In this document: in pieces, positions 1 to 15,332 of the stretch
How positions within the stretch are numbered: position 1 is the first letter of the stretch
How the letters are laid out: each line of letters begins with the position of its first letter
Source: a virus
UHGV virus genome: UHGV-0171672
Strand: one strand, 5' to 3'
DNA length: 31,138 nucleotides
Notes under the pieces: model-generated
Told to the model about the DNA's origin: nothing
Database searches by the model: none
What the model saw: only the letters and a program-made list of their open reading frames with translations
Position numbers and translations under genes: made by a program

Positions 1-85
1 CTGGCAGCCTGAGTTCACAGATAAAACACTCTCCAGGAAACCCGGGGCGGTTCAAGGAGTAATTATTGTTCGGTATCAAAGGGAG

Positions 86-112
86 ACAAAAAAGCGCCCG
101 CAGGAGATTTAA
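86..112. other. Candidate attL core (integrase-distal flank)
   Basis: acaaaaaagcgcccgcaggagatttaa lies just 3' of the int stop; it resembles my memory of the P2 att core (A-run ... GGGAGATT). Not verified. Confidence 0.2.
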
Positions 113-193
113 CACACCTTACTCCCCTTGATGATTTACTTATTTTTCAATGACTAAATCAAAAAAAGGGGAGCAAATTAACGCAAATTACAA

Positions 194-1186
194 CTAGTCA
201 ATGGACAGTTTATGGACACTATCAGCCAGCGGATTAAAGCTAATCGCATCCTGTAAAAAGTCCGGTGAAAAATGCGCATACGTCATCGTTTGTTGAATCG
301 TGGCGTGCCCAAGGATTCGCTGTAACGTAACGATATTTCCGCCGTTCATCATGAAATGCGTGGCGAACGTGTGACGCATAACGTGAGTCGCCTGACCTTT
401 GGGTAAATCCGGTTTCACCTCCTGAAGGATATCCCGAAAACGGATGTAATCAGCCTGGTACAATAGCCCGGTTTTTCGGGTTTTTATCAACGAAAGCACC
501 GTATCAGAAACAGGAACCGCGCGGGATTTTCCATTCTTTGTGTTAAAGAACATTACGCGGTTACCAACGATATGCTCACCACGTAAGCCAGCTGCTTCCC
601 CCCACCTTGCGCCAGTGGAAAGACACAGAACAGCAACACGACGCGCATCCCCCTCGAGTCGTTCAAGCAGCCGATCAATCTCATCATCTGAAAGAAAGGC
701 CATTTCTGTATTCCTGACCTTGAGCTTACGTATTCCACGCACCGGGTTTTCGTTATGAAAAACCTCCGCATCAATCAGCGAGGTAAACATTGCAGACAAG
801 GCGCACAAATCACGATTAACACTGGAGGGCATTAATCCGGCCTGTAATTTGTCTGAACGATACCCGAGCATAAACTTTCGCGTCATCTCACTGGCGCGGG
901 GGTCCCTCATCTCACGGTTTATTTTTTCCAGCCTGACCCTGTAAGTATCCCCGTAAGGCTGATTCCGGCCATCAAGCACCCACCAGGCATCTATCAGTTC
1001 GGATAACCGACGCTGATCAGCTGGCTTGGCCTGCCACGGTTTATCGTGGAAATTCTGCAAAACATACCTTTCAAACTCCTGTGCCTTTGACTTCAGGGTA
1101 AAAATCTTACGGATCCGCTTTCCTTCCGTCCCTTGCGGTCTTACATCAACCTTATAACGCCCGTCTTTGAGTTGCTTAATCGACAT
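194..1186 (-). CDS. int: Tyrosine recombinase / phage integrase (P2 Int-like)
   Basis: ORF 194..1201; likely true start is ATG at 1186 (MSIKQLKDGRYKVDV...) preceded by GGAGGGG. N-terminus resembles P2 Int; C-terminal HxxR and H...Y catalytic motifs present. Confidence 0.9.
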   Translation of the reverse strand: MSIKQLKDGRYKVDVRPQGTEGKRIRKIFTLKSKAQEFERYVLQNFHDKPWQAKPADQRRLSELIDAWWVLDGRNQPYGDTYRVRLEKINREMRDPRASEMTRKFMLGYRSDKLQAGLMPSSVNRDLCALSAMFTSLIDAEVFHNENPVRGIRKLKVRNTEMAFLSDDEIDRLLERLEGDARRVAVLCLSTGARWGEAAGLRGEHIVGNRVMFFNTKNGKSRAVPVSDTVLSLIKTRKTGLLYQADYIRFRDILQEVKPDLPKGQATHVMRHTFATHFMMNGGNIVTLQRILGHATIQQTMTYAHFSPDFLQDAISFNPLADSVHKLSID

Positions 1187-1255
1187 GATTAGCCCCTCCA
1201 ACGGATAAATCAGCCGTACACTCTCTACGGAATGAAACCCGCTCGATGTACAGCG

Positions 1256-1597
1256 TTAGCCAGCATTGCGACGAGATCGGGGTGATTTTTGGGTGGCTGG
1301 GATTGAATCCTGATCGTCCTCCGACTGAATGGAGCCATCAAGAGAGAGAGCCGGAGCTATCTGACCGGCAGCAGGCATTGTCTTATCTTTTATTAGCCAC
1401 ATCATGTATTTTTCAAACCGATCAACTTGGAGAACCATCTCAACAATTTTGGCTCTGGCGCTTTTTTGCCCTGATTCATAGTTCCTTATGGCAGCTAAAG
1501 ACAACCCCGTAATATCCGCAAATTCCTTTTGCGTTAGCCCTTCAGCCTTGCGTATTTGACGTAGCTTTTTTGCATAGTCTATTGACAAGATAACCAT
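1256..1597 (-). CDS. C: Immunity repressor, P2 C-like HTH protein
   Basis: HTH segment LTQKEFADITGLSLAAIRNYESGQ and the motif GQIAPAL shared with P2 C; divergent from the cox-like gene. ATG at 1597 chosen over the upstream TTG of the ORF track. Confidence 0.8.
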   Translation of the reverse strand: MVILSIDYAKKLRQIRKAEGLTQKEFADITGLSLAAIRNYESGQKSARAKIVEMVLQVDRFEKYMMWLIKDKTMPAAGQIAPALSLDGSIQSEDDQDSIPATQKSPRSRRNAG

Positions 1598-1616
1598 TTG
1601 AGTATTAACCTCTCGC

Positions 1617-1642
1617 AAAAGATACTCGTACGAGTATCTTTT
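1617..1642. promoter_or_regulatory. 26-bp perfect palindrome in the C/cox switch region (candidate operator)
   Basis: AAAAGATACTCGT|ACGAGTATCTTTT read directly from the sequence, lying between the divergent C and cox-like starts. Confidence 0.5.
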
Positions 1643-1701
1643 ATAAACCTAAACAAACCTTCATGAGGCGCGACAAGCGCACCAACGCAAGAGGATAGCA
1701 A

Positions 1702-2226
1702 ATGCGGAAGTCAATTGCCGATAAAGAGTTATCTGACACACAAGCCCTTCAGGAAAACGACAGCATCACCGAATCCGTTGGCGCGGCAAACGACGATGAA
1801 CACCAAGAGGAAAAGAAAAAACGCACCTACAAAAAAGGGGCAACCTTGCGACTGGATGGCCCGGTAGCCGGACTTTGCTCACTTGAAAAAGGGGCAGCCT
1901 ATATCGGGTTGACAAAAGCTGCATTGCGCGTGGCGCTTCAGCGAAATCAGATGCCTGGACACAAGACCCGTTCAAACCCTGAAGATGAAAATTCGGATGG
2001 CGTGTGGTGGTTTAACGCCAGAGAGTGGGACAAGCTGGCTGACGAACTACCAGAATGCGAGCCGCCAGAATGGCACAACTGGAAAAGCTACTGGACATAC
2101 GACCGACAGAAAAGAAAGTTTTCCCCGGCAAACAAAGAAGACTGCCAGACCATCAATGGAAAGCGGGTTTACACAGGAAGAAAGTCAAAACTGGAGCAAC
2201 ACCAATACAGTGGAGGCAACCAGTGA
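1702..2226 (+). CDS. Cox/Apl-like excisionase-regulator with N-terminal extension
   Basis: First gene of the rightward operon, SD AGAGGA. HTH-like GAAYIGLTKAALRVALQRNQMP followed by VWWFNAREW, parallel to the P2 Cox pattern. 174 aa is about twice P2 Cox; an internal TTG start after AAGGGG is possible. Confidence 0.6.
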   Translation: MRKSIADKELSDTQALQENDSITESVGAANDDEHQEEKKKRTYKKGATLRLDGPVAGLCSLEKGAAYIGLTKAALRVALQRNQMPGHKTRSNPEDENSDGVWWFNAREWDKLADELPECEPPEWHNWKSYWTYDRQKRKFSPANKEDCQTINGKRVYTGRKSKLEQHQYSGGNQ

Positions 2227-2310
2227 CATCAAAACAAACCGGCAACAGCGAAATCCCAGGAATGAGATTTCGCCGCAGATGCTGTGGAAAATGGTTGTTA
2301 TGCAAGCAGC

Positions 2311-2766
2311 CTACCAGGCTGATGGATGATCATCATCAATATCAAACACATTTCTGTAAAAACGAGAATGTTGCAAGGGATGAATAAGCGACCCCCAACA
2401 ATCATAAATATCAGCCAGTTCGAACACATCGTATGAGAGATGTTGAGCAAACGATTCGGCACCTTCAAAAGACTCAAACACCTCATCATACAAGTGAATG
2501 TTTTCAGGATACGAAAGTGACAAGCAAAAACCAGACGTAGATTCCGTAACCAAGAAGACAAGGTGATATTTATCATTCACCAGTGACTGAGCACATTTTT
2601 TTACAGAGCGAAGAATCACAGGGGAACGCGCGCCAATACGAAAGAGTTCTGCATGAGCACGGGCATCAACAAAACTGTGAAACCCCTCACTTCTTGCAAG
2701 CTCACGTTCGGCAGCACGCAAAACCCAAAACCACCGCCCAGATTCGGATGTAAGGATAATTTTCAT
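2311..2766 (-). CDS. Hypothetical protein, antisense to early operon, low-GC patch
   Basis: 151-aa ORF with a single Met and weak RBS; region looks AT-richer than its flanks. No motif recognised. Confidence 0.4.
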   Translation of the reverse strand: MKIILTSESGRWFWVLRAAERELARSEGFHSFVDARAHAELFRIGARSPVILRSVKKCAQSLVNDKYHLVFLVTESTSGFCLSLSYPENIHLYDEVFESFEGAESFAQHLSYDVFELADIYDCWGSLIHPLQHSRFYRNVFDIDDDHPSAW

Positions 2767-3030
2767 ATGAATAAAGAGAAATCTCCGGATTATTTTGTGA
2801 AACGATTACAGGATGCAACAGAGTCAATGTTGATTGCCCTGAATAATTACTCTTACGAAGAGGCCGTAACGGTACTTGAGTGGATAAAGGAAAAAATAAC
2901 GGAAGACAGCATCGTCAAGATGCAGAGTATCAACATCTCCCGTGACAAAACATTTCCACTGCGAATACCGCCAAAACGACGACTGGTTTACTCGATACCA
3001 GTCTCAATGCAGTGCAAATTGCCGAAATAG
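2767..3030 (+). CDS. Hypothetical protein
   Basis: ATG at 2767 (MNKEKSPDYF...), 87 aa, helical-looking; starts immediately adjacent to the minus-strand ORF start at 2766. Confidence 0.45.
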   Translation: MNKEKSPDYFVKRLQDATESMLIALNNYSYEEAVTVLEWIKEKITEDSIVKMQSINISRDKTFPLRIPPKRRLVYSIPVSMQCKLPK

Positions 3031-3182
3031 TTTATGAGAAAACATAAATACTCCTTTGTGTGGTTGGTTATCGTTACAACAGTTCGGGCAAGAATTGCAA
3101 GGCGTAACGAAATTACCACAAAACCATGCGCCGGGCATGGCTAAAAACCCGGCACAAATTCACAGCAGCAGTAGGGATTTTT

Positions 3183-3527
3183 ATGAAGAAACCGGGAAAT
3201 TTTTCACAGCAGAATTTTCGAACAAGTGCCGAACGCCACGTTGCACGCCAGCACTTCCGCAAAAATAGTGCGACCACAACCACTGAAATCCATGCCACAC
3301 CAGACGGTCACCCGGTAAAACAAACCGGCAAGCACACCTGGACGATTGGCGACACTGGCATCGTTATTCACAAAAGTTTTCGCAGCCCTGTTACTGGCAG
3401 ATTTAATTTCACCCTGACTCGCGGGGATGATTACTTCGGACAGGACTTCACATTTTTTGAAGCCTTAAGAACGGCAGACAGATTAATCAGCGGCCTGCGT
3501 TTTCAATATCCGGGAAGCAAGCACTGA
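3183..3527 (+). CDS. Hypothetical protein
   Basis: ATG at 3183 preceded by AGGGA; an alternative ATG at 3126 lacks an SD. Confidence 0.5.
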   Translation: MKKPGNFSQQNFRTSAERHVARQHFRKNSATTTTEIHATPDGHPVKQTGKHTWTIGDTGIVIHKSFRSPVTGRFNFTLTRGDDYFGQDFTFFEALRTADRLISGLRFQYPGSKH

Positions 3528-3545
3528 TAAATAAAGGATTCAGCC

Positions 3546-3788
3546 ATGATCGAAGCCTACAAAATACTTATTAATAACGCGTTGCAGCGTTACCACTTCG
3601 AACTTGCAAACCGGGGCGTAACTAAGGATGAAAGCCTTCGTAACTCACTGCGCGGCGCAATTATGGGGCTATACAACTGCGCACTGGGCAGCGATGACCG
3701 TGAAGCGCTGGAAGAATTAAAGTCGATTATGACAGAACTGTTTGAAGGTGAAATTGTTGAGCCTTACTTCACAGGGGTAGCCGCATGA
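3546..3788 (+). CDS. Hypothetical protein
   Basis: 80-aa ORF, SD AAAGGA 7 nt upstream; ATGA overlap with the next small ORF. Confidence 0.6.
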   Translation: MIEAYKILINNALQRYHFELANRGVTKDESLRNSLRGAIMGLYNCALGSDDREALEELKSIMTELFEGEIVEPYFTGVAA

Positions 3789-3910
3789 GCATATTTCTTT
3801 CATGGGTAATTCTGATTATCTCCGTGCTTATGGCAATCGGCATTATGCGAATTATCCACACACTGAAGGATATCGAATTATTCTTTACCGGCGATAAACG
3901 CCGTAAATAA
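3785..3910 (+). CDS. Small hydrophobic peptide (41 aa, one predicted TM helix)
   Basis: MSIFLSWVILIISVLMAIGIMRIIHTLKDIELFFTGDKRRK; ATGA-coupled to the upstream ORF; below the 60-aa ORF-track cutoff. Confidence 0.35.
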   Translation: MSIFLSWVILIISVLMAIGIMRIIHTLKDIELFFTGDKRRK

Positions 3911-3922
3911 AGCGAAAACCTT

Positions 3923-4018
3923 ATGAAGAATGTAAAAGCAATACACACCATCGCCACTGTATGGGTGATATTTCAGGTGAGTGCGCTTATCTGGTTAGCC
4001 CTGAAGATCTGGGAATAA
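3923..4018 (+). CDS. Small hydrophobic peptide (31 aa)
   Basis: MKNVKAIHTIATVWVIFQVSALIWLALKIWE; weak RBS. Confidence 0.2.
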   Translation: MKNVKAIHTIATVWVIFQVSALIWLALKIWE

Positions 4019-4123
4019 CCTGAAGCCGAAAGCAGGCGCGGAATAACACCAGAAAACACACGAGCAATTAATTAAGGCATTCATGCCTTCGGGTTCCCTT
4101 TGTCTTTTTTCAGGAGTCAACAA

Positions 4124-4354
4124 ATGAGAACAGCCGAATCACCCGGCAGAGAAATAACCGCCAGACCAGCTAACCATCATGCGCATATCAGCATGGCCGC
4201 AAGAAAAGCCGAGCGTGCACATATCTGCGAATTACTGCGCGAGCTGACTGAGACAGCGAAAGAGACACACACCTGTCCACAGGAAACCTGCGCAGCCATT
4301 GAACGACTGATTGCAATACTCGCCAACCCAGACGAACTGAAGGGGTGCGCATAA
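4124..4354 (+). CDS. Hypothetical protein
   Basis: ATG at 4124 with AGGAG 6 nt upstream; stop overlaps the exonuclease start (TAATG). Confidence 0.55.
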   Translation: MRTAESPGREITARPANHHAHISMAARKAERAHICELLRELTETAKETHTCPQETCAAIERLIAILANPDELKGCA

Positions 4355-4935
4355 TGAACCATCTCATGATTGACACCGAAACACTGGGTAACGGACCGGA
4401 CGCAGCCATATTCGCGATTGGGGCGGTGTTTTTCGACCCGTTCACCGGAAAGCTGGGCAAGCAGTTTGAGAAATTCATCGACCCGGTGGATTCAGAACGC
4501 AACGGCGGAACCGTCAATGCAGCCACCGCTGTATGGTGGGCCGGACAATCCGTGGAAGCCAGAGCCTGCCTGCGCAACGCAGATGGAACAGAGCTGGCAG
4601 CAGTGACCGAATTTCTGGCGTTCATTTCACGCAATATGCATGACGAAAGCCCGGGCAATTCACTGAACATATGGTGTAAGGGCGCATCCTTCGATTTCCC
4701 GATCCTGAAATCCGCCATAACACGCACAGCCGGAGAAAAAAGCATCCCCTGGTGCTACTGGAACGAGCGCTGTATGCGCCCGCTTATCGCCATGGCTGAA
4801 TCAACTGGATGGAAAATGCCAGGCAGATCAGGCAAAGAGACCATTGCTCACACCGCGCTGGGCGACGCCGTTTACCAGGCAAAGGTCGTGTCAGAAATCT
4901 GGCAGCGCTTCACAACACCATTCCTGAACATATGA
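4354..4935 (+). CDS. DEDDh-type 3'-5' exonuclease (DnaQ-like fold)
   Basis: N-terminal MIDTETLG motif and later H...GDA-like motif typical of DEDD exonucleases. Confidence 0.75.
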   Translation: MNHLMIDTETLGNGPDAAIFAIGAVFFDPFTGKLGKQFEKFIDPVDSERNGGTVNAATAVWWAGQSVEARACLRNADGTELAAVTEFLAFISRNMHDESPGNSLNIWCKGASFDFPILKSAITRTAGEKSIPWCYWNERCMRPLIAMAESTGWKMPGRSGKETIAHTALGDAVYQAKVVSEIWQRFTTPFLNI

Positions 4936-4944
4936 GGTGAAGCC

Positions 4945-5172
4945 ATGGTCGCCATCCTGAATGTGTGTTGCTGCCCCCCCCTGAACGTGGAAAGAAAAGC
5001 CCGCGCATCGCTGCGTTTATTCCGCGACGGCGTGCGGAATTTTTCACGCATAAAACCCCACGACTACCTGGTAATAAGAATCGGTTTTCGCTGGCGATTG
5101 CTGAGCAAAAACAACGGGGCGTCATGGGATTTATTAACGCACGAAACCTATAACAAAGAGGCCGCGTTATGA
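4945..5172 (+). CDS. Small hypothetical ORF containing a C8 homopolymer, coupled to dam
   Basis: Strong SD GAGGTGA before ATG 4945; ATGA overlap with dam start; C8 run at 4974-4981. Protein sequence is not obviously globular. Confidence 0.3.
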   Translation: MVAILNVCCCPPLNVERKARASLRLFRDGVRNFSRIKPHDYLVIRIGFRWRLLSKNNGASWDLLTHETYNKEAAL

Positions 5173-6113
5173 GCAAAGAACTGTTATCCGGCACGCCGCT
5201 TAAATGGGTGGGCGGAAAAAGTCGCATCATGAACACACTGAAGGCGCATCTGCCAGAAGCAGACTGCCTGGTTGAGCCGTTTGTGGGTGGCGCATCGGTA
5301 TTCATGAACACCAGTTACAAGCGTTACATCCTGGGTGATTCCAATGGTGCGCTGATTAATTTCTACCGGCAAGCCAGGGACAACACCGACAGCCTGATCG
5401 ACGAGGCGAAAACCCTGTTCCTGAACCACAACAACAGGGGTGACTATCTCATCATTCGCGAAACCTTTAACGCAGAGAATCATGCCTTCCTGAACAGCAG
5501 AACGGGAATAAGCGACCGCCGTGAACTGCGACTGGCCGCCATGTTTTTGTACCTGAACCGACACAGCTTTAACGGTTTGTTCCGCGTGAACGGAAAAGGC
5601 GATTTTAACGTGCCTTTCGGCTGCTACCGCAAGCCCTACTTCCCTGAGCGGGAAATCCGCGCATTTGCAGACAAGGCAAACAGCACCCGAACGCTGCTTA
5701 TCCACGCAGATTTTAAGGATACGCTGAACTCTGCCAGTCACCTGTTCGGCATGGGCAACACGCTTTGCGTGTACTGCGATCCCCCTTACCTGCGATTCAG
5801 TGGCCGGGACAATTTCACCGCCTACGGAAAACCATTCGATGAAGACGAGCACGTTCGTCTGAGGGCAGCGCTTGACCGCCTTTCACAGGAAACGGGCGGC
5901 ATGACCAGCATCACCATATCCAATTCCGACACACCGGAAACCAGACGCATTTATCAGGGTTACCGGATGAACGCCATCCAGGCACCACGAAGCGTTGGCG
6001 CAAGAACCCGGGAATCAGCACCGGAGGTTATCGCCACCCTGAGATGCATCACATCCGCCTTATCAACGGTTCGCACTTCTGCGCCACGAACATGGAAGAA
6101 GTACGCGTGCTGA
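5169..6113 (+). CDS. dam: DNA adenine methyltransferase (Dam-like N6-adenine MTase)
   Basis: KWVGGK AdoMet-binding motif near the N-terminus and catalytic DPPY motif. Confidence 0.9.
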   Translation: MSKELLSGTPLKWVGGKSRIMNTLKAHLPEADCLVEPFVGGASVFMNTSYKRYILGDSNGALINFYRQARDNTDSLIDEAKTLFLNHNNRGDYLIIRETFNAENHAFLNSRTGISDRRELRLAAMFLYLNRHSFNGLFRVNGKGDFNVPFGCYRKPYFPEREIRAFADKANSTRTLLIHADFKDTLNSASHLFGMGNTLCVYCDPPYLRFSGRDNFTAYGKPFDEDEHVRLRAALDRLSQETGGMTSITISNSDTPETRRIYQGYRMNAIQAPRSVGARTRESAPEVIATLRCITSALSTVRTSAPRTWKKYAC

Positions 6114-6141
6114 CAGCAACACGCAATACGGGAGGTAAAGC

Positions 6142-6492
6142 ATGGCAGTGATTTATATCGCCGGTCCCATGACCGGATGCAAAGACCACAACAGGACGGC
6201 ATTTTGCGTGGAGGACCTGAAACTTCGGTGCGCCGGAAACATCGTTCTTAATCCTGCCGTACTGCCTGACGGATTAAGCCAGCAGCAGTACATGAGTATT
6301 TGTATTCCGATGCCCATGTGTGCCGATGCCATTTACTTACTGGATGGATGGGAAGAGTCCGCTGGCGCACGGGCTGAGTACGCAATGGCGCTCAAACTGA
6401 ACATGCCAGTGTCATTCCCGGAAAACCGGGCAGCCGGCGAAACCGTCGCGCAGCTGCTTCACAAATCAAAAGCCGCACAGGCGACTGAGTAA
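6142..6492 (+). CDS. DUF4406-like protein (nucleoside 2-deoxyribosyltransferase-like fold)
   Basis: VIYIAGPMTG ... IVLNPAVLPDGLSQQQYM ... YLLDGWEESAGARAEY pattern matches DUF4406 as I remember it; SD GGAGGT. Confidence 0.7.
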   Translation: MAVIYIAGPMTGCKDHNRTAFCVEDLKLRCAGNIVLNPAVLPDGLSQQQYMSICIPMPMCADAIYLLDGWEESAGARAEYAMALKLNMPVSFPENRAAGETVAQLLHKSKAAQATE

Positions 6493-6930
6493 CCGACCGG
6501 AGATCGAAACATGATTGCGCGCAGAGCTACCAACCGTCTCACAGGCTTTATTCCAGGCAAGGTTGATCATGCACTCCATCACGGGGCTGTCACTTTCCTC
6601 AACAAAGGAGAGGCGCGCAATCATGCATTCCGGGGTGAGCACGTGGCGCTGGCTAATCAGTCTTTGATAGCTAAGCGCCTGCCATTCAGCCTTTTCAGCT
6701 CTGATAGAAAGAGAGGCAGCCATGACCTGCCACACCAGAAAGAGCACCACACTGGCGAAAACAAACGTTGCGCTGTCGCAAAAAATGAATGCGGCAACAA
6801 TCGCAAGGAAAGCGCTAATCCTCAGAACCAAGGAAGCGCGACGGTGGAGAAGGCTTGTCATGTGTTCAAGCCAGTAGCTGTACCACAGGTCAAAAAGAAT
6901 TTCGTAATCAGAAGGGAGCTTATCACTCAT
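6466..6930 (-). CDS. Hypothetical membrane protein, antisense orientation
   Basis: ATG at 6930 (MSDKLPSDYEILF...), two hydrophobic helices; the only plausible coding content in 6.5-7.3 kb. Confidence 0.35.
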   Translation of the reverse strand: MSDKLPSDYEILFDLWYSYWLEHMTSLLHRRASLVLRISAFLAIVAAFIFCDSATFVFASVVLFLVWQVMAASLSIRAEKAEWQALSYQRLISQRHVLTPECMIARLSFVEESDSPVMECMINLAWNKACETVGSSARNHVSISGRLLSRLCGF

Positions 6931-7188
6931 CAGAAACACCCCGCGTATGCAGACAATCACCAGTTGCCAGGTGATATTAATTCGCAACATTCTAACCACA
7001 TCAGCACGCAACACAAAAACCGCTTGCCAGCGCTCGTCGTGTCGGGTTACATTTCCGCTGCACCTCATAAAACGGGTGCCGGGATTTCCACCCCGCTGAC
7101 AAACGAAGCGCACAGCCGCGCCAGCGGTTTTTTTGTGCGTACTGTATCGCCACGTCTTTTTCGCGTCAGAATTATGGCGGGGCGTACA

Positions 7189-7222
7189 GGGCCGACTTCG
7201 GTCGGGCCGGTTTCTTCGTTTG
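7189..7222 (+). terminator. Stem-loop with UUCG-type loop followed by T-rich tract
   Basis: GGGCCGAC-TTCG-GTCGGGCC then GGTTTCTTCGTTT. Confidence 0.3.
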
Positions 7223-7313
7223 CCGGTTGTGGAAACCCTGTACGTCTCGCCACCCTGAGTTTTCCACCTCTGGTTGGTGAGTTTTCAAAATTCACAAACG
7301 AAGAGGCCACACC

Positions 7314-7535
7314 ATGGCAAACCGCAAGCAACAGCGCGCCCGCGCTGAGCGTCTTCACATCCGCAGCGAAATCAACCGCAGACTTTTCCGCGCAACACGC
7401 GTCGCGCAAATCATGCATATCAACATGCTGCATGAGCGCACGCACGCACTATCAAACCGTTACTGCGCTGCTGTCTTCAGCTATCTCGCCGAAGATCTGG
7501 CAGAACTGCAAAGCCTCATCAACCAGCACCGATAA
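7314..7535 (+). CDS. Hypothetical basic protein
   Basis: 73 aa, SD AAGAGG; preceded by a 19-bp near-palindrome at 7277-7295. Confidence 0.55.
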   Translation: MANRKQQRARAERLHIRSEINRRLFRATRVAQIMHINMLHERTHALSNRYCAAVFSYLAEDLAELQSLINQHR

Positions 7536-7603
7536 ACCACATCCGGAAGCTATCCCACACCTGCACGCGGGAGGCTTCCGCACGTCTGTTACCGGAGGTT
7601 CTC

Positions 7604-8020
7604 ATGAAGAGCGTTAAGGGACTTTCAGATATTCAGGACTTCTTTAACTGGATGTGGGCGGTGGATCCCCTGCTGGCTTCCCGCCTGAACAACTGGCACG
7701 ACTATTACCGCCGCGCCTGTAAACAGGCTGCCCGCAGCGTCACCACATACGGGGATTTCTCCTTCACCGTGGACGGTCGTTACCGCGTGGACGTGAAAGG
7801 TGACGGTGATGGCTTTGGTTTATTTCACATCAACGGCACCGACAGTACCGCCATCAGCTGGTCATCGTCAGAGATGGCACTGGTTCTGGAAATGACAACC
7901 CACAGCGTGGCCGTGAAAGGCATATACACCGCAGAAGACTTTATCGGTGAATACCAGCGCCTTCTCGTGCTGTACCGCGCGGCGTTTCAGGAGGTCACTG
8001 GCGGGGAGTACGACGCATGA
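7604..8020 (+). CDS. Hypothetical protein upstream of A
   Basis: 138 aa, SD GGAGG; ATGA overlap with A. Confidence 0.6.
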   Translation: MKSVKGLSDIQDFFNWMWAVDPLLASRLNNWHDYYRRACKQAARSVTTYGDFSFTVDGRYRVDVKGDGDGFGLFHINGTDSTAISWSSSEMALVLEMTTHSVAVKGIYTAEDFIGEYQRLLVLYRAAFQEVTGGEYDA

Positions 8021-10530
8021 GTGACCGCAATGCACAGCTGGCGTACCCGTGGAACGCACCGCTACCGGTTATCGATCCTGAAACGTTCGGCAGAGCACAA
8101 CCAACCGCATTACGCCAGGCCATTCAGAGCTACATCAACGAGGACATTCGCATTGATGCCAGACTGGATGAAGAAACCGTCTCCTTCCTGACAAACACAG
8201 ACGAAGGCAAGCGAATTAATTCGCATCTTCACCACGACGAAGAGCGTCGGGTCAGACTGGAAAAACTGGCGAAGCACAAACGCGAGAATCCGCCCACGGT
8301 GGTATCGGAAGCCATGGCAGAACTTCGCGCCCTGCCCTCGTTTCTTGGCAACGTGCTCATTCGTGATCTGGCGCGTTTAAACCGCAAACAACAAAGCGCC
8401 CGCAATGAAGGCGTGAAAAACAACAACACTCACGTGGCCGATAACTTCGTTCGCCGTGGACTGCGCACACGCCTGAAACGCATCGAACAGGTGAATGAAT
8501 GCTTCGCCACGACGGCATTCAAAGCCACCGCAGCGCGTCATCGCCTTGATGAATTACTCATGCTGCCACAACTCAACCGTGATCAAATTCAGCGCCTTGC
8601 CACACTAACGGCGGCGGCATTTTCCACCGAACTGGAACGCATATGTGATGAAGTTACTGAGCGGACAGGAAAAGGCGACGATAACCTGTTTACCTGGTTG
8701 CTGACTTACCAGCAGCTGGCGCGCATGGCAATAAAACTGGGCGTGAACCCACCATACTGGCCGTCACTCGAGATCAGACGTGACCGCCGCACGGCACCAG
8801 ACCCTGAACTGGTACCGGGTGCGGTAATGCGTATCACCTGCGCCACCTGGTGGAACAACCAGCTGCGCCACCTCGCTGATCTCTGGCGGGAGGAATTACT
8901 GCGTGCCGCCGGAAGAGTATCGCGCAAGGCATCCCCCTACATCAGCCATGAGTCACTCCAGGAATTCCGGGAGAAACGCCAGCGCACCCGTGATTTTCTC
9001 AAAAGCTGGGACATTGAAAACGAAGACGGTGAACGCTTGAGTCTGGAGGACGTGTACTGGTCAGGGCTGGGGAATCCGCGCAACCGCCGCAACGAGATGA
9101 TGGCCTGCGTCAGAGGGATGGAACAGGTCGCCGAATCGCGTGGTGACTCCGCGTTCTTCGTGACAGTAACCTGCCCTTCCCGCTTTCACAGCGTGAACGA
9201 GGACGGCAGCCTGAACCCGAAATACAACGGTGCCACCGTGCGCGATGCCAGTGATTATCTGGTTTACGACGTCTTTGCAGCTGCAAGAAAAAAACTCAAC
9301 AAAGAAGGCCTGAGCTGGTACGGGGTGCGCACCGTTGAGCCACACCATGACGGCACACCGCACTGGCACATGCTGGTATTCACCGCCCCGGACAATGAAG
9401 AACGCATCATTGAAATCATGCGTGACGCAGCAATCAAATCAGATCGCGCAGAACTGGGGAATGATATTTCTCCGCGCTTCAAGTGCGAAAAAATCGACCC
9501 GGCAAAAGGCACACCGGCAAGCTACATCGCAACCTATATTGGCAAGAACCTGGACGCCAGCACCTTTCACGACAATGACCCGAAAACCGGCAAACCTTAC
9601 GCCGATAAAGAATCGGGAAAAACCATGGCGGAAACCGTGGAAAACGCCATTGCCTGGGCGAGTCTCCACCGCATCCGGCAGTTCCAGTTCTTCGGTATCC
9701 CGCCCCGACAGGTATGGCGTGAACTCCGCCGCCTTGCCGGACAAATGGAGCGTAACCCCGCATCACCGAAGCGCCTGGACCATGACGACATTGACGCCAT
9801 TCTGGCCGCCGCTGACGTGGGGTGTTTTGCCACCTACATCAACCGTCAGGGCGGCGTGCTCATTCCACGCAACCTGTACCTGATCCGCACCGCATACGAA
9901 ACCGCAGATGAGGCCAACGACTACGGCGAATTCCCGCAGCGCATCTACGGAATTTGTGCCCCGTCGCTCGGCGAGCGCTACACCATCTGTACCCATCCGG
10001 ACGAATGGAAACTGGTCAGAAAAGAAGCGAAATCCGACAACAGCACGGACGAGGGTTTTGACGTTGGGGGCGGCTTCGCCGCACCTTGGACTCGTGGCAA
10101 TAACTGTCCCCATGATGAAAAAACAGACACCGGAGAGGGTAAAAACCCACCACCGGAAACCAGGAAAGAACAAAAACTGGTCGTCCCGGGAGGTGATTTG
10201 GGTGAGTGGTTAAGGTCACTGACCCCCACAAAGCGAAAACAACTCACCAGGCAGCTGAAAGATGCGCCATCTGACACAAAAACCGTGAAAACCGGCGGCC
10301 CCACCACGCCCGATGACGTCATACATGTGCGTACAGCATTGCCGCTGACTGACGTCACCACCACCGTAATCAAGTCGGCACTGAGCGCGACGGGCGAGGA
10401 GCTACACAGTGGCGCAGCACTTTCCGTACACAGAGGTGCACGCGTTCGCCTGCCTGACGGGCGGATTGTGCACTGGGATGAGAAATCACGAAGCCTGGTG
10501 GCAGCAGATCAACCGGAGGTGAACCCATGA
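8017..10530 (+). CDS. A: Rolling-circle replication initiation endonuclease (P2 gpA-like)
   Basis: HUH motif TPHWHMLVF and paired tyrosines YIATYIGK; 837 aa. Confidence 0.9.
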   Translation: MSDRNAQLAYPWNAPLPVIDPETFGRAQPTALRQAIQSYINEDIRIDARLDEETVSFLTNTDEGKRINSHLHHDEERRVRLEKLAKHKRENPPTVVSEAMAELRALPSFLGNVLIRDLARLNRKQQSARNEGVKNNNTHVADNFVRRGLRTRLKRIEQVNECFATTAFKATAARHRLDELLMLPQLNRDQIQRLATLTAAAFSTELERICDEVTERTGKGDDNLFTWLLTYQQLARMAIKLGVNPPYWPSLEIRRDRRTAPDPELVPGAVMRITCATWWNNQLRHLADLWREELLRAAGRVSRKASPYISHESLQEFREKRQRTRDFLKSWDIENEDGERLSLEDVYWSGLGNPRNRRNEMMACVRGMEQVAESRGDSAFFVTVTCPSRFHSVNEDGSLNPKYNGATVRDASDYLVYDVFAAARKKLNKEGLSWYGVRTVEPHHDGTPHWHMLVFTAPDNEERIIEIMRDAAIKSDRAELGNDISPRFKCEKIDPAKGTPASYIATYIGKNLDASTFHDNDPKTGKPYADKESGKTMAETVENAIAWASLHRIRQFQFFGIPPRQVWRELRRLAGQMERNPASPKRLDHDDIDAILAAADVGCFATYINRQGGVLIPRNLYLIRTAYETADEANDYGEFPQRIYGICAPSLGERYTICTHPDEWKLVRKEAKSDNSTDEGFDVGGGFAAPWTRGNNCPHDEKTDTGEGKNPPPETRKEQKLVVPGGDLGEWLRSLTPTKRKQLTRQLKDAPSDTKTVKTGGPTTPDDVIHVRTALPLTDVTTTVIKSALSATGEELHSGAALSVHRGARVRLPDGRIVHWDEKSRSLVAADQPEVNP

Positions 10531-11845: not shown

Positions 11846-11886
11846 GTTACCCTTAGCAGCGAGGGTAACACAGGATTTCTTTTTTC
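11846..11886 (+). terminator. Rho-independent terminator ending the rightward early operon
   Basis: GTTACCC-N10-GGGTAAC stem followed by ACAGGATTTCTTTTTTC. Confidence 0.6.
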
Positions 11887-12592
11887 AGTCAAACCGAAAT
11901 CGGCCGCTTGTCGCGTATGCATAGGTGACCACCGCACCCAGCGCATTCACACGCTTCTTCACATAAATCACATTACCATCCTGATAGTCACCGTATGGGT
12001 AGCAAATAAAGATTGTTTTTTGCAAATCAGGATCATCAACAAATGCCCCTGAACAACTTTTTGAGCTACCGCGACTGTACTCATAGGGAGCGGAATAGAA
12101 TGAATCTTCACCCGGAAGAAAATATATCAGCGTAACCAGGAGGGTAAACAGAATCATCCAGGTAAGAAGGCACATACCCGAAAAAAACTTAAGATACGAT
12201 GTAACCCCGGTAAATTTAGACCGATCAACCAGGTTCTTTTTCAACAGGCACAGTGAGACAAAAACCGAAAGCACCACAGACACTGAAACAAGGCAGTTTG
12301 TCGTGAACGAATAAAGGTAGGTAATTCTGTAAACATCGTTTCGCCACCAAATAAAAAGAAAAATCCCCCCCAAAACAGAAAGCGTGACAAAAGTTAAATA
12401 AGGATATGAGTAATTTTTCACAGTTCTCACCCGGCAGTCTCCCACTGACTCAGACAGATGAATATCATCACCACCTGCCACAAAAAATCGCAAGATCAAA
12501 ACTACACAAAAGCGCACGAAATTGCACAATTTTTCTAATGTACTTTTTCCCCATTCCGCCCGGTAACGGCGCTGGCTGAGGCCGGTTTGCAC
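11885..12592 (-). CDS. Multi-TM membrane protein (cargo island, module 2); start uncertain
   Basis: At least three hydrophobic helices plus a ~80-aa C-terminal soluble region. The first ~25 codons of the track ORF overlap promoter-like repeat copy A, so a downstream GTG (12421 or 12430, after GGGTGAG) is the more likely start. Confidence 0.5.
   Translation of the reverse strand: MQTGLSQRRYRAEWGKSTLEKLCNFVRFCVVLILRFFVAGGDDIHLSESVGDCRVRTVKNYSYPYLTFVTLSVLGGIFLFIWWRNDVYRITYLYSFTTNCLVSVSVVLSVFVSLCLLKKNLVDRSKFTGVTSYLKFFSGMCLLTWMILFTLLVTLIYFLPGEDSFYSAPYEYSRGSSKSCSGAFVDDPDLQKTIFICYPYGDYQDGNVIYVKKRVNALGAVVTYAYATSGRFRFD
12511..12576. repeat. Promoter-like direct repeat, copy A
   Basis: agcgcacgaaattgcacaatttttctaatgtactttttcccc... 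aligns at ~75% identity (hand alignment) with 15438-15501. Confidence 0.5.
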
Positions 12593-12759
12593 GGTGCACG
12601 AAAAACGAGGCGAGTAGTGGATGAGTAAAAATTAATAATAAGTATAAGCAATGTCGATAAACCAAGACACAACAAGTATTCAACACAATTAATCATGCAC
12701 GTGCAAATAGCAATAACATTAACACATTATTTATATAAAAACAATCTGATATTATTTCG

Positions 12760-12790
12760 GTTGTGGGCTTGGTATTTTCAAACCCACAAC
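12760..12790 (-). terminator. Perfect 8-bp stem hairpin downstream of the three-gene module (non-canonical terminator candidate)
   Basis: GTTGTGGG-N15-CCCACAAC, 35 nt past the stop of the 263-aa gene in an AT-rich spacer; no clean U-tract. Confidence 0.25.
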
Positions 12791-12824
12791 AATAATATTA
12801 TTTCGAGATATTAAACATAGACAA

Positions 12825-13616
12825 TCACCCTATTTTTCTATGCATTTTCATGAGTTCCCTTATTAAGCTAGCATGAAAGATTGATACATCAGAAATCCTT
12901 GTATCAATAGATGAATCAATATTATCAGAAACCTTTTGCTCAAATAAATCGCAGATACCATCAAGTGACTCAATATCTTTTTCCAACTTAGAAAAACCCT
13001 TAAATAGATATAATGAATCCCTTAACTCCCCAAGCTTTGAAAATAGTTGGCTATCTAGTAATGATATAAATTCATCAGAGGGAAGCCCCATCGCATCCTT
13101 AAAATCTTCCGTAACTTCAAAAGCTAATCCATTAATTTTAGGGAGAATAACTTCTCGTAACCAATACCCTTCGTTTATAGCTTCATTTCTTCCTTTATAA
13201 TGCTGCCACAAAGGAACCCCTACAGATGCAATTAGCGCAATAATTGAAATTGCTATAGAGTACCATTCAGGTCCTGATTCAGGAACTCTAACGATATTAT
13301 AGAGATTCCCCGATGAGGTTGAGGGGTAATATCCATTCAGAACATAATTATCAGGTTTATCATAAAGAAGGTGCGGTGTAAACTTCCTTTCATAACTATT
13401 GCATAATTTTAGATCGCTATTTTTTCCAATGCATATATCAGCATTAAAAATGTTTCCACTCTTTGGTTCTATTACGTGAGACTCTGAATTTTGCGAATCC
13501 ATGTTAGACGCGGTTCTTTCTAGATATGTCGCAGAGCAAGCGGATATATTAACAAAAAAAATGACAGGCAATGCTGTCATTTTAAAAACAGAACACAAAT
13601 CAGAAGAACGGAACAT
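12825..13616 (-). CDS. Lipoprotein-like membrane protein with internal TM helix (cargo island)
   Basis: N-terminus MFRSSDLCSVFKMTALPVIFFVNISAC has a lipobox-like ISAC; internal helix WYSIAISIIALIASVGVPLW; 17-nt overlap with the upstream gene. Confidence 0.6.
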   Translation of the reverse strand: MFRSSDLCSVFKMTALPVIFFVNISACSATYLERTASNMDSQNSESHVIEPKSGNIFNADICIGKNSDLKLCNSYERKFTPHLLYDKPDNYVLNGYYPSTSSGNLYNIVRVPESGPEWYSIAISIIALIASVGVPLWQHYKGRNEAINEGYWLREVILPKINGLAFEVTEDFKDAMGLPSDEFISLLDSQLFSKLGELRDSLYLFKGFSKLEKDIESLDGICDLFEQKVSDNIDSSIDTRISDVSIFHASLIRELMKMHRKIG

Positions 13617-13944
13617 TTCGATGTAATCCTCTTCTCACAGCCCTATCCAGCTCAGAAAGCATTCCTTCTTTATAATTCACTCCATCTAAAGATGTTCTGC
13701 TATAAAATTCATTCGGAGATGAAAAAAGAGGCAATATATTCTCTAGCATACCCAAAAAGTATGAGCTTGACACAACCACACCATTCGGAATTGATAGAAA
13801 AATCCTATCATTGTTATCAAAAGTAAAGCGATCTATGCCAAAGAAACTATATGCCTTGCGACCATTATCACGCCCAGCAAATAATTTCTTGCCGCCATCT
13901 TTAACTAATTTATTGAAATCTATATAAATATTTGCCATTTTCAT
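13600..13944 (-). CDS. Small STAS-like (DUF4325-like) protein, partner of the GHKL ATPase
   Basis: 114 aa; segment IFLSIPNGVVVSSSYFLGMLENIL resembles the SSSF-type motif of DUF4325/STAS proteins; SD GAGGAA; 11 nt after the ATPase stop. Confidence 0.55.
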   Translation of the reverse strand: MKMANIYIDFNKLVKDGGKKLFAGRDNGRKAYSFFGIDRFTFDNNDRIFLSIPNGVVVSSSYFLGMLENILPLFSSPNEFYSRTSLDGVNYKEGMLSELDRAVRRGLHRNVPFF

Positions 13945-13955
13945 TTACCTATTCC

Positions 13956-15332
13956 TCAGGTTCTTTGAGTTGCATTTTCCGGTAAAGGAAAACGTATATT
14001 AATCATAACTCCCGGAAAACGGGCTTTCTGCATACACTTAAGATAGGTACGATCTGGTTCAGATTCAAGCCCTGTATTATTAAATGGATAAGTGAATTTG
14101 TCACTTTGGTTATCTAACGTTTGCTTTTTCAACTTATAAGAACCATCAAAGTTTATATGTGTGCATCCAGAAATTAAAGACATTCTGATGTTTCCACTTA
14201 GTTCTTTGGATAGTTCTTTTAAACTATCATGCATATCCTGGAAAAACTTCAATAGCTCAATGGTTCCCGTACCAGAACTATCTGTCTCCGTTTCATTTTT
14301 ACAACTAACCCGCCCCTGCAAAGCAGCGACTGTAATCAAACCTTCTCTAAACATCCCTTTTTTATTTATGTGTTTTTCCACATAAGGGATTATGTGATTG
14401 TTATATGAATAATGTTCTAAAGAAAGTCCTGAAAAAGTTTCATCAATAGTTTTTCCAAAGTTAAAAACAGCTATTTCACATGTTGGCTGTTTTAAGCCAT
14501 TATTTACAAACCCCCTCAAATACCAACGCGGACGCTGCTCAAGCCCACAATGTCTCTCTGCATTATCAAGTAATTCGCCCATGCAAGATGTTAGATGGTT
14601 TTCTGCCTTGCTAACTAATTTTAATTGATGATCACTTAGACACTCGTTTATATAATTAGTGAATTTCTCAGACATTCTATTTTTGGTATCTTGTGCAAAT
14701 GCAGACGCATTTTCCTTGCCGATACTATCAGCAGAGAATATTCTTTTCTTAGGGTTATCTTTTTTCGATTTTTCTGTTTCATCATGCACCTTCCCTGGCG
14801 TCACTTTATTTATTTCTTTAACCAACCCGATGTCACGAATAATTTCTAAATATTTTTCATCCTTCGGATAAATGCCATTAAGTTGTACTTGAGCATCTTT
14901 TAAATTTATATTGTGACGTTTGGCTGAGCTCAGTGCAACACCAAGGAGACATTCCGCACCTAAACAATGCTTTTTATTTTTAGTATAATCAAGCAAATAT
15001 GATTTACGTTTACCCCTGGCAATCAATCTAGTTACACCATGAATAAACAAAAGAGATTTTTCTGGATGATCAAACAAATCGAAATATTTAGGTATTATTA
15101 TTCTATCTTCTTTGCGACGAAGAGTTGCAGTATCATATTTCTTTACGGATGAAATACTTTCAATAAAAGTAGCCACCTGACTTTTCACTGGTGTTACTTC
15201 GTCAGAAAAATGTAACCTTTCATAGGCTTTATATTTAATTCTTCTTTTATTTTTTCTCTCAACGCCTTTTAAAAAGCGAATCCAACCACGTAAAAAGCGT
15301 TTTCTTGCATCCTTTTTATCTATTTTTTTCAC
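13956..15332 (-). CDS. GHKL-type (histidine-kinase-like) ATPase with basic N-terminal domain
   Basis: N-box ELLDNAERH (encoded around 14551-14577) and Gly-rich DSSGTGTIELL; GTG start at 15332 after AAGGTGA; K/R-rich ~240-aa N-terminal region. Confidence 0.7.
   Translation of the reverse strand: MKKIDKKDARKRFLRGWIRFLKGVERKNKRRIKYKAYERLHFSDEVTPVKSQVATFIESISSVKKYDTATLRRKEDRIIIPKYFDLFDHPEKSLLFIHGVTRLIARGKRKSYLLDYTKNKKHCLGAECLLGVALSSAKRHNINLKDAQVQLNGIYPKDEKYLEIIRDIGLVKEINKVTPGKVHDETEKSKKDNPKKRIFSADSIGKENASAFAQDTKNRMSEKFTNYINECLSDHQLKLVSKAENHLTSCMGELLDNAERHCGLEQRPRWYLRGFVNNGLKQPTCEIAVFNFGKTIDETFSGLSLEHYSYNNHIIPYVEKHINKKGMFREGLITVAALQGRVSCKNETETDSSGTGTIELLKFFQDMHDSLKELSKELSGNIRMSLISGCTHINFDGSYKLKKQTLDNQSDKFTYPFNNTGLESEPDRTYLKCMQKARFPGVMINIRFPLPENATQRT

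Follow-up and report, generated by a model that had tools for sequence, protein, structure and literature searches.

In the early region of a P2-like prophage, UHGV virus genome UHGV-0171672 (31,138 nucleotides (nt), referred to in its entirety as the window), two open reading frames (ORFs) diverge from start codons that occupy adjacent bases. The ORF listing places gene A on the minus strand (2311–2766; 151 amino acids (aa), ATG start) and gene B on the plus strand (2767–3030; 87 aa, starting at an internal ATG of the frame that ends at 3030), and they meet as CAT/ATG, where the slash marks the boundary between the genes. This locus raises the question of whether both frames are real and, if they are, how two genes that share no intergenic region are expressed. 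Here, we report that both encode proteins and that their zero-spaced junction is conserved across diverged lineages, and we conclude that the pair is best explained as a conserved accessory cassette of two genes, occupying a slot for leftward cargo in the early region of P2-like prophages.

A and B are both genuine protein-coding genes, with starts at 2766 and 2767. Against their Salmonella homologues, to which they are 56% (A) and 57–58% (B) identical in amino acid sequence, the ratio of nonsynonymous to synonymous substitution rates (dN/dS) comes to 0.21 in A and 0.17 in B, at a dS of ~1.7 that is near saturation, and third codon positions are enriched among the nucleotide differences (74 of 164 in A and 45 of 88 in B). 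Despite this saturated dS, both ORFs are intact in eight lineages. Because both frames are under purifying selection and both belong to conserved protein families, the suggestion in the original prediction that one of the two is spurious is refuted; conservation of the plus-strand frame alone among relatives, the pattern it had named as telling against the minus-strand gene, was not seen, as the frames of A and B are both conserved. The idea that one ORF is a non-coding artefact of the other strand could appeal to the disagreement among RefSeq starts (136 aa for A; 87 or 77 aa for B) and to the lack of Pfam matches. Set against a dN/dS of ~0.2 for both genes, the third-position bias, the frames intact in eight lineages and a confident predicted fold for A, we find it scarcely credible.

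The RefSeq starts, assigned by the NCBI Prokaryotic Genome Annotation Pipeline (PGAP), themselves look wrong for both genes. For A, RefSeq begins at a TTG at codon 16, yielding a 136-aa protein (WP_225379704.1), and this codon is TTA in Salmonella. The first 15 codons of A alone have a dN/dS of 0.19, and a weak DUF1508 match and the predicted first β-strands of the protein begin before the RefSeq TTG. The RefSeq lengths of B disagree with each other: WP_250886373.1 has 77 aa, and WP_001031145.1, from a second genome, has 87 aa. In six of seven lineages the B frame is closed 4–8 codons upstream of the ATG and offers no other start, and A is without an alternative upstream start in four of the seven. 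A 125-aa form of B (start 2653) is possible in the E. coli lineage only and, given the closed frame elsewhere, was set aside as an accident of that lineage. A is occasionally lost as a pseudogene, some Salmonella copies (P0003, P0004 and P0013) being frameshifted to 116 or 73 aa.

The junction itself reads TTCAT/ATGAAT at 2762–2772, and its first ten base pairs (2762–2771) form a palindrome, TTCATATGAA, that holds both start codons with zero spacing. The ribosome-binding sites (RBSs) of the two genes are interlocked across it. As read from the sequence, the Shine–Dalgarno (SD) motif of B, AAGGA at 2752–2756 on the plus strand, lies 10 nt before its ATG and within codons 4–5 of A, and a purine-rich SD 5–10 nt upstream of B's ATG, inside codons 3–6 of A, is present in all seven lineages compared. 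Reciprocally, A has an SD (GGAG, GGGG or GAAGG) 7–9 nt upstream of its ATG and inside codons 3–5 of B in six of the seven. Insertions and deletions at the junction would therefore not be tolerated, including any base between the two ATGs. Nucleotide conservation near the junction is accounted for by the amino acid sequences together with the RBSs. The zero spacing also means that all expression signals must lie within the partner gene or beyond it.

We found the zero-nt junction to be kept in eight diverged lineages, with identity of A down to 28%, and TTCAT/ATG is present in 11 of 11 loci compared. The pair occurs in E. coli, two Salmonella types, Yersinia enterocolitica, Trabulsiella odontotermitis, another enterobacterial host, two metagenomic lineages and L070, a very distant lineage in which A is 28% identical (hhalign 98.9%, E = 3e-17) and the two genes abut as well. 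In a remote pair, L045/L054, the homologue of B (hhalign 95.6%, E = 1e-8) has an ATG that shares 2 nt with that of a leftward 87-aa ORF (CATG); a reading of this leftward ORF in L045 as a DUF1508 protein is only possible (hhalign 15%, E = 0.0017). Across the 26 loci with B matches, none has B without an A-type or DUF1508-looking leftward neighbor. Wherever context is available, orientation is constant, B sharing the direction of cox and gpA and A that of the repressor and integrase genes, and the cassette takes varying positions within the early region, after one, two or four early genes. Among GTDB species-representative genomes there is a single locus, in Trabulsiella, and the A/B family is therefore rare.

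Within the prophage, whose insertion site adjoins dmsA in E. coli, the leftward genes to the left of the pair encode a tyrosine integrase (194–1201, minus strand) and a helix-turn-helix (HTH) repressor (1256–1618, minus strand), followed by the plus-strand gene for a 174-aa Cox-related protein (1702–2226). A and B sit between this first early gene and, in order, the DUF4761, DUF4754, 3'-5' exonuclease, Dam methylase and gpA genes, which places them in the early region. The zero-spaced head-to-head pair among the early genes is thus as originally described, and so is its lower-GC patch: 2311–3030 has a GC content of 0.425 compared with 0.514 for the whole window, within the lowest 11% of 720-nt windows. 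The accompanying proposal that the patch is acquired DNA gains support from this composition, from the presence of the cassette in 6 of 5426 E. coli genomes, and from its location at a site that holds many unrelated cargo genes.

Predicted products of the pair

Structure prediction indicates that A is a divergent tandem YegP/UPF0339 (DUF1508) fold. The model contains two β3-α repeats, and such tandem copies of the β3-α fold, arranged as a pseudo-dimer, resemble those in 2K49 and 2K8E. Its sequence similarity to YegP/UPF0339 proteins (SO_3888, 2K49; HVO_2922, 6Q2Z; NMB1088, 3BID) falls under the Pfam threshold; the match to PF07411 covers residues 8–31 only and is below the gathering score (E = 0.078, 13.3 bits versus a cut-off of 22). 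A fold search of BFVD with A returned marginal single-domain DUF1508 matches only, and a 1276-aa protein, which we take to be a DUF1508-repeat protein, matches residues 5–35 of A in five stretches. In contrast to the YegP/UPF0339 proteins, A has an additional conserved acidic C-terminal tail of ~30 residues, and the C-terminal 25 residues, with the motif HPLQHSRFYRxxFDIxDDHPS, are its best-conserved part. The protein as a whole is acidic, with an isoelectric point (pI) of about 5.4 in the window and about 5.2–6.2 across the family. It corresponds to phrog_28512, a PHROGs family of unknown function, and the family is small: 1.84 billion representative proteins yield 8 matches. A computational study of one defence system likened tandem DUF1508 domains to the PC4/Whirly single-strand binders and proposed that they act there as sensors (PMC12065111).

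B is basic (pI 9.3 in the window, 9.3–10.2 across the family) and its family is likewise small, comprising 8 clusters. The AlphaFold2 model, at a predicted local distance difference test (pLDDT) score of 62, has an N-terminal helical hairpin formed by helices 7–26 and 30–51. The tail of B is predicted to be disordered and yet carries the invariant motif D.xFP.R.PPxRRL.Y.

Searches by sequence added little to these models. Neither A nor B has a significant match in Pfam or NCBIfam, sequence profiles of the PDB match neither, and tblastn of both against 50,697 phage records found no match. PADLOC-DB 2.0 has no match to A, B or their Salmonella homologues at E <= 1. Profile searches of A and B identified neither an HTH nor any other DNA-binding family, and in Pfam, NCBIfam and the PDB neither protein matches a toxin or antitoxin domain.

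A leftward slot signal beyond gene B

Right of B lies a conserved non-coding element (3043–3154) which, in minus-strand order, consists of a ~45-nt core, an extended −10, a hairpin and an SD–ATG pair. The core in the window, TACCACAAAACCATGCGCCGGGCATGGCTAAAAACCCGGC (3116–3154), contains the palindrome CCATGC-GCCGG-GCATGG (3124–3140), and the hairpin of the core has a predicted energy of −20.9 kcal/mol on the minus strand versus −12.9 kcal/mol on the plus strand. The candidate extended −10, TGGTAATTT (TGnTAnnnT, from 3118 to 3110 on the minus strand; TGGTCCTTT would be a mutated version of it), is ~344 nt upstream of A's ATG. The hairpin that follows, CGTTAC...GTAACG (3072–3109), varies in stem sequence between phages, with compensating changes, and keeps its position and pairing; its folding energy has no consistent strand bias (25 versus 15 elements, Wilcoxon p = 0.7). 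Finally, an SD, AAGGAGT (3056 to 3050, minus strand), and an ATG (3045 to 3043) open a 13-codon ORF that ends inside the 3' end of B, the whole spanning 3004–3056.

An exact 18-mer of the core is found in 68 IMG/VR contigs of P2-like size, and the core in 78 of 5426 complete E. coli genomes, where the RefSeq hits have no feature annotated. TGnTAnnnT stands at a fixed offset in 53 of 61 distinct elements, compared with 5% of shuffled flanks, and the 14 hexamer variants of the −10 among these elements are all TAnnnT. In the A/B lineages with enough sequence, the motif is 83–100 nt beyond B's stop in six of six. The slot signal is present in 61 distinct P2-like contigs, and its SD–ATG heads at least 15 unrelated families of leftward cargo genes of 47–158 aa (for instance SEN5_34 of Salmonella phage SEN5, which starts at the slot SD–ATG); the genes right of the core vary too. 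In its behavior, then, the element heads a slot for leftward cargo. The original prediction had considered a minus-strand ORF antisense to the early operon unusual for P2-like phages, a view not supported in this clade, where 61 distinct P2-like contigs have one at the homologous place. Within the A/B cassette, the SD–ATG is kept in seven of eight lineages, L070 being without it, and opens only 13–22-codon, non-conserved ORFs that end in the 3' end of B.

A small plus-strand ORF at 3034–3144 was rejected, as it is not conserved in other lineages. An Rfam search of 1–8000 returned nothing in 2200–3200. Literature searches by RefSeq accession, by PHROG identifier and by core sequence turned up no paper on the slot, the core or the gene pair, and the slot, core and extended −10 do not appear in the portions of text available from PMC9122126 and PMC13586616. 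Around the start of the DUF4761 gene lies a direct repeat, AAACC(C/G)GG...TTCACAGCAG, whose copies (3145–3168 and 3189–3212) are spaced by 44 nt; we saw it in this lineage only.

Expression of the pair and competing explanations

A simple promoter and terminator scan of both strands over 1200–3600 yielded fewer sites than shuffled sequences, with one weak promoter-like site, located inside A, and no terminator near the pair; no intrinsic-terminator-like site was detected on either strand from 1231 to 3600 or on the plus strand from 1200 on, and none separates the slot element from A on the minus strand or cox from B on the plus strand. Scanning the insides of A and B with a σ70 position weight matrix in six lineages, we detected no positionally conserved internal promoter, and internal promoters are therefore rejected as the leading model. 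A leaderless A mRNA was also rejected, as there is no −10 at a suitable distance from the ATG. Beyond the stop codon of A, a 14-bp hairpin (2245–2276) and then a U-rich tail (2244–2227) form a candidate end of the leftward A transcript (2227–2276, minus strand); no T-run follows this hairpin on the plus strand. Other lineages also have a GC-rich hairpin after A's stop, without a consistent U-tract. The original prediction had offered, as its alternative to a spurious ORF, expression of one gene from a promoter inside the other. This is right insofar as the zero spacing forces signals into or beyond the partner and the RBSs do lie inside it, but A's most promising candidate promoter is found ~80 nt past the stop codon of B, in the conserved leftward signal.

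With moderate confidence, we favor a noncontiguous-operon, or excludon, layout in which A would be expressed from the slot promoter, B by early lytic read-through, and the two in a mutually exclusive manner. In the lysogen, the early promoter would be repressed and A transcribed from the slot promoter, with an mRNA leader of ~340 nt that would be the complete antisense of B. During lytic growth, read-through from the early promoter would cross A in antisense and then encode B. Fully complementary RNAs and converging polymerases would thereby restrict A to the lysogen and B to the early lytic phase. The gene order fits such a layout, with A on the minus strand embedded among plus-strand genes, the cox-like gene on one side and B, DUF4761 and those after them on the other; that these plus-strand genes form an operon is judged from their order.

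More speculatively, A might act in the lysogen as an effector, for example an exclusion factor, and B might antagonise or replace it when the phage enters its own lytic cycle. What prompts this idea is that B occurs strictly with an A-type gene, that the two proteins are oppositely charged and that each has an invariant tail. A strand-interlocked phase toggle, with a YegP-like A that may bind single-stranded nucleic acid made in the lysogen only, perhaps to exclude other phages, a basic antagonist B when the early operon fires, and exclusivity ensured by antisense overlap and the shared palindrome, can be put forward only tentatively.

Several observations weigh against the excludon account and the partnership of A and B. 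At the slot, the putative promoter is a motif match only, the simple σ70 scan finds nothing there, and a start 6–8 nt after the −10 would fall in the 5' arm of the conserved hairpin. On the minus strand the core forms a 10-bp hairpin and then a U-rich run; going by its sequence, it may thus act either as a promoter/operator or, instead, as a leftward terminator. About 235 nt of the A leader would be untranslated and exposed to Rho. In the E. coli lineage of the window, the exception among the seven compared for A's SD, CTCT occupies the SD position and a GGAG is 16 nt away. The absence of Pfam, NCBIfam and PADLOC matches for A and B is a further point on this side. As for the partnership, alleles of the two genes reassort: in L015 the A is of the L022 type (78%) but the B of the L004 type (93%), and the correlation between the pairwise identities of A and those of B is only r = 0.21. 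L052 has a distant A homologue directly on the slot SD, without B (hhalign 93%, E = 2.5e-7). Reassortment together with an A homologue that lacks B weakens the case for a specific partnership between the two proteins.

The same observations feed an explanation in which A and B have no functional link at all, A being independent cargo, B an ordinary early gene, and the junction a frozen accident of one ancestral insertion that the interlocked RBSs have held in place. Reassorting alleles, a distant A homologue that sits on the slot SD without B, and a slot that accommodates at least 15 unrelated cargo families all suit it. Against it, B is found only beside an A-type or DUF1508-looking leftward gene across deep divergence (the 28% identical A of L070 and the remote L045 pair), no partnerless B turned up in the 26 loci with B matches, and both conserved tails are nearly invariant, so that swapping partners need not break an interaction. 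On balance we think the absence of a link unlikely, while giving it real weight.

Two further explanations concern where transcription begins. In an autonomous face-to-face switch of the P2 Pe/Pc or 186 pR/pL kind, the promoter of each gene would be embedded in the coding sequence of the other, making the pair a self-contained bistable element, independent of the early promoter and the slot. Zero spacing does put any dedicated promoter inside the partner gene, and weak σ70-like matches occur on both strands (for example, an A-sense −10 that ends 22 nt upstream of A in the window and a B-sense candidate at −223), but no candidate is conserved in position or sequence across the six lineages, and the conservation of the junction is already explained by amino acids and RBSs. 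Nor does either protein have a recognisable DNA-binding domain, and B is downstream of the early promoter with no terminator found between them. Such a switch is improbable in our estimation. The other explanation posits an establishment-type leftward promoter, as exemplified by 186 pE and lambda pRE, that would run on into the repressor and integrase and make A a passenger or helper in establishing lysogeny. A is co-oriented with the repressor gene C and int in every context, and in L009 it lies directly upstream of C–int with 230 bp between. A GC-rich hairpin, however, follows A's stop in all lineages, a rightward gene separates A from C in most contexts, the cargo varies greatly, and a CII-like activator site is absent; nor is an establishment promoter known in P2-type phages. 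We regard this possibility as very improbable.

The layout that we favor has precedents. Noncontiguous operons with mutual repression have been described, four of them in prophage 80alpha (PMC11034616), and these excludons (the S. aureus menE operon, Listeria and 80alpha) share with the A/B locus a gene set against an operon and, as predicted for A/B, fully overlapping transcripts and an expected mutual repression; opposing roles are proposed there for the embedded and operon genes, as we suggest for A and B (PMC11034616). The A/B layout differs in that A also abuts the next operon gene start to start, with interlocked RBSs and a leader that would be antisense to a whole gene. Phage morons and the P2 lysogenic-conversion genes old, tin and fun/Z are a second point of reference, being low-GC, patchy cargo at a fixed site in the lysogen-type orientation (PMC9122126; PMC13586616). 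The A/B cassette has the atypical composition and patchy presence of a moron (6 of 5426 E. coli genomes for the cassette and 78 for the slot core). It also has candidate flanking signals at the level of motifs, namely TGnTAnnnT in 53 of 61 elements and the 2245–2276 hairpin, which has its U-rich tail in the window and an unclear U-tract elsewhere. The int–gpA interval is reported to hold 8% of recognised P2 defence systems (PMC13586616). In contrast to morons, the A/B slot, its 45-nt core and the extended −10 are unannotated in the E. coli RefSeq records found, the cargo is without a PADLOC match, and the cassette has a second gene in the opposite orientation.

In P2 and 186, the promoter pairs Pe/Pc and pR/pL lie face to face, and lysogenic and lytic transcription converge there with transcriptional interference. 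The A/B locus would share with them the overlap of leftward lysogenic and rightward lytic transcripts, but in the P2 and 186 switches the genes code for DNA-binding repressors and the control region between them has been mapped, whereas A and B have no DNA-binding domain that we found and no intergenic region. Type II toxin–antitoxin systems likewise resemble the pair in comprising a small acidic and a small basic protein, one of them with a disordered, conserved C-terminal tail. The A/B genes are, by contrast, divergent rather than a co-transcribed bicistron and match no toxin or antitoxin family, and the helical hairpin and disordered tail of B are only reminiscent of an antitoxin.

What stands out at this locus, in our view, is a junction invariant in its zero spacing and a cargo slot that lacks annotation; the kind of cassette, accessory and in a noncontiguous-operon layout, is already known. 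Selection has held a zero-spaced divergent arrangement, a spacing that annotation pipelines avoid, through saturating divergence, and A/B is thus a clean natural case in which antisense overlap and interlocked RBSs could couple two genes. If the slot signal is active in lysogens, the 'hypothetical' cargo genes, which lie in the int–gpA interval, become candidates for lysogenic conversion, exclusion or anti-defence, and the slot could serve as a source of new small genes for lysogenic conversion or defence. For a YegP/UPF0339-type fold, the pair would also supply a defined genetic setting and a dedicated partner, and with them an experimental way in.

Other features of the window

The protein encoded at 1702–2226 matches Phage_Cox over residues 58–129 just under threshold (25.3 versus 27.5 bits) and has long N- and C-terminal extensions that are not in P2 Cox. 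The related phages SEN5 and L014 have a long first early gene of this kind plus a separate 93-aa Cox right of the slot. Between the repressor and cox-like genes, a perfect 12+2+12 palindrome, AAAAGATACTCG-TA-CGAGTATCTTTT (1617–1642), is probably the immunity operator. Nearby, a TTGACA at 1582–1587 has a spacer of only 15 nt to TATTAA.

Two RNAs score above the Rfam gathering threshold in the early region, isrK (7060–7134, 64 bits) and, directly after it, the C4 antisense RNA (7170–7257, 82 bits). At the prophage–host boundary by dmsA, just beyond the integrase gene, there is an STnc130-like match (56–110; 49.6 bits, slightly under the gathering score of 55). Between gpA (8017–10530) and the portal gene, four leftward ORFs of 235, 263, 114 and 458 aa occupy a hotspot at 11885–15332 that includes the lowest GC content of the window, 0.325 near 14641. 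The four ORFs have no Pfam or PADLOC match; they lie where P2 classically carries tin and old, and may make up a defence or cargo system that is not yet characterised.

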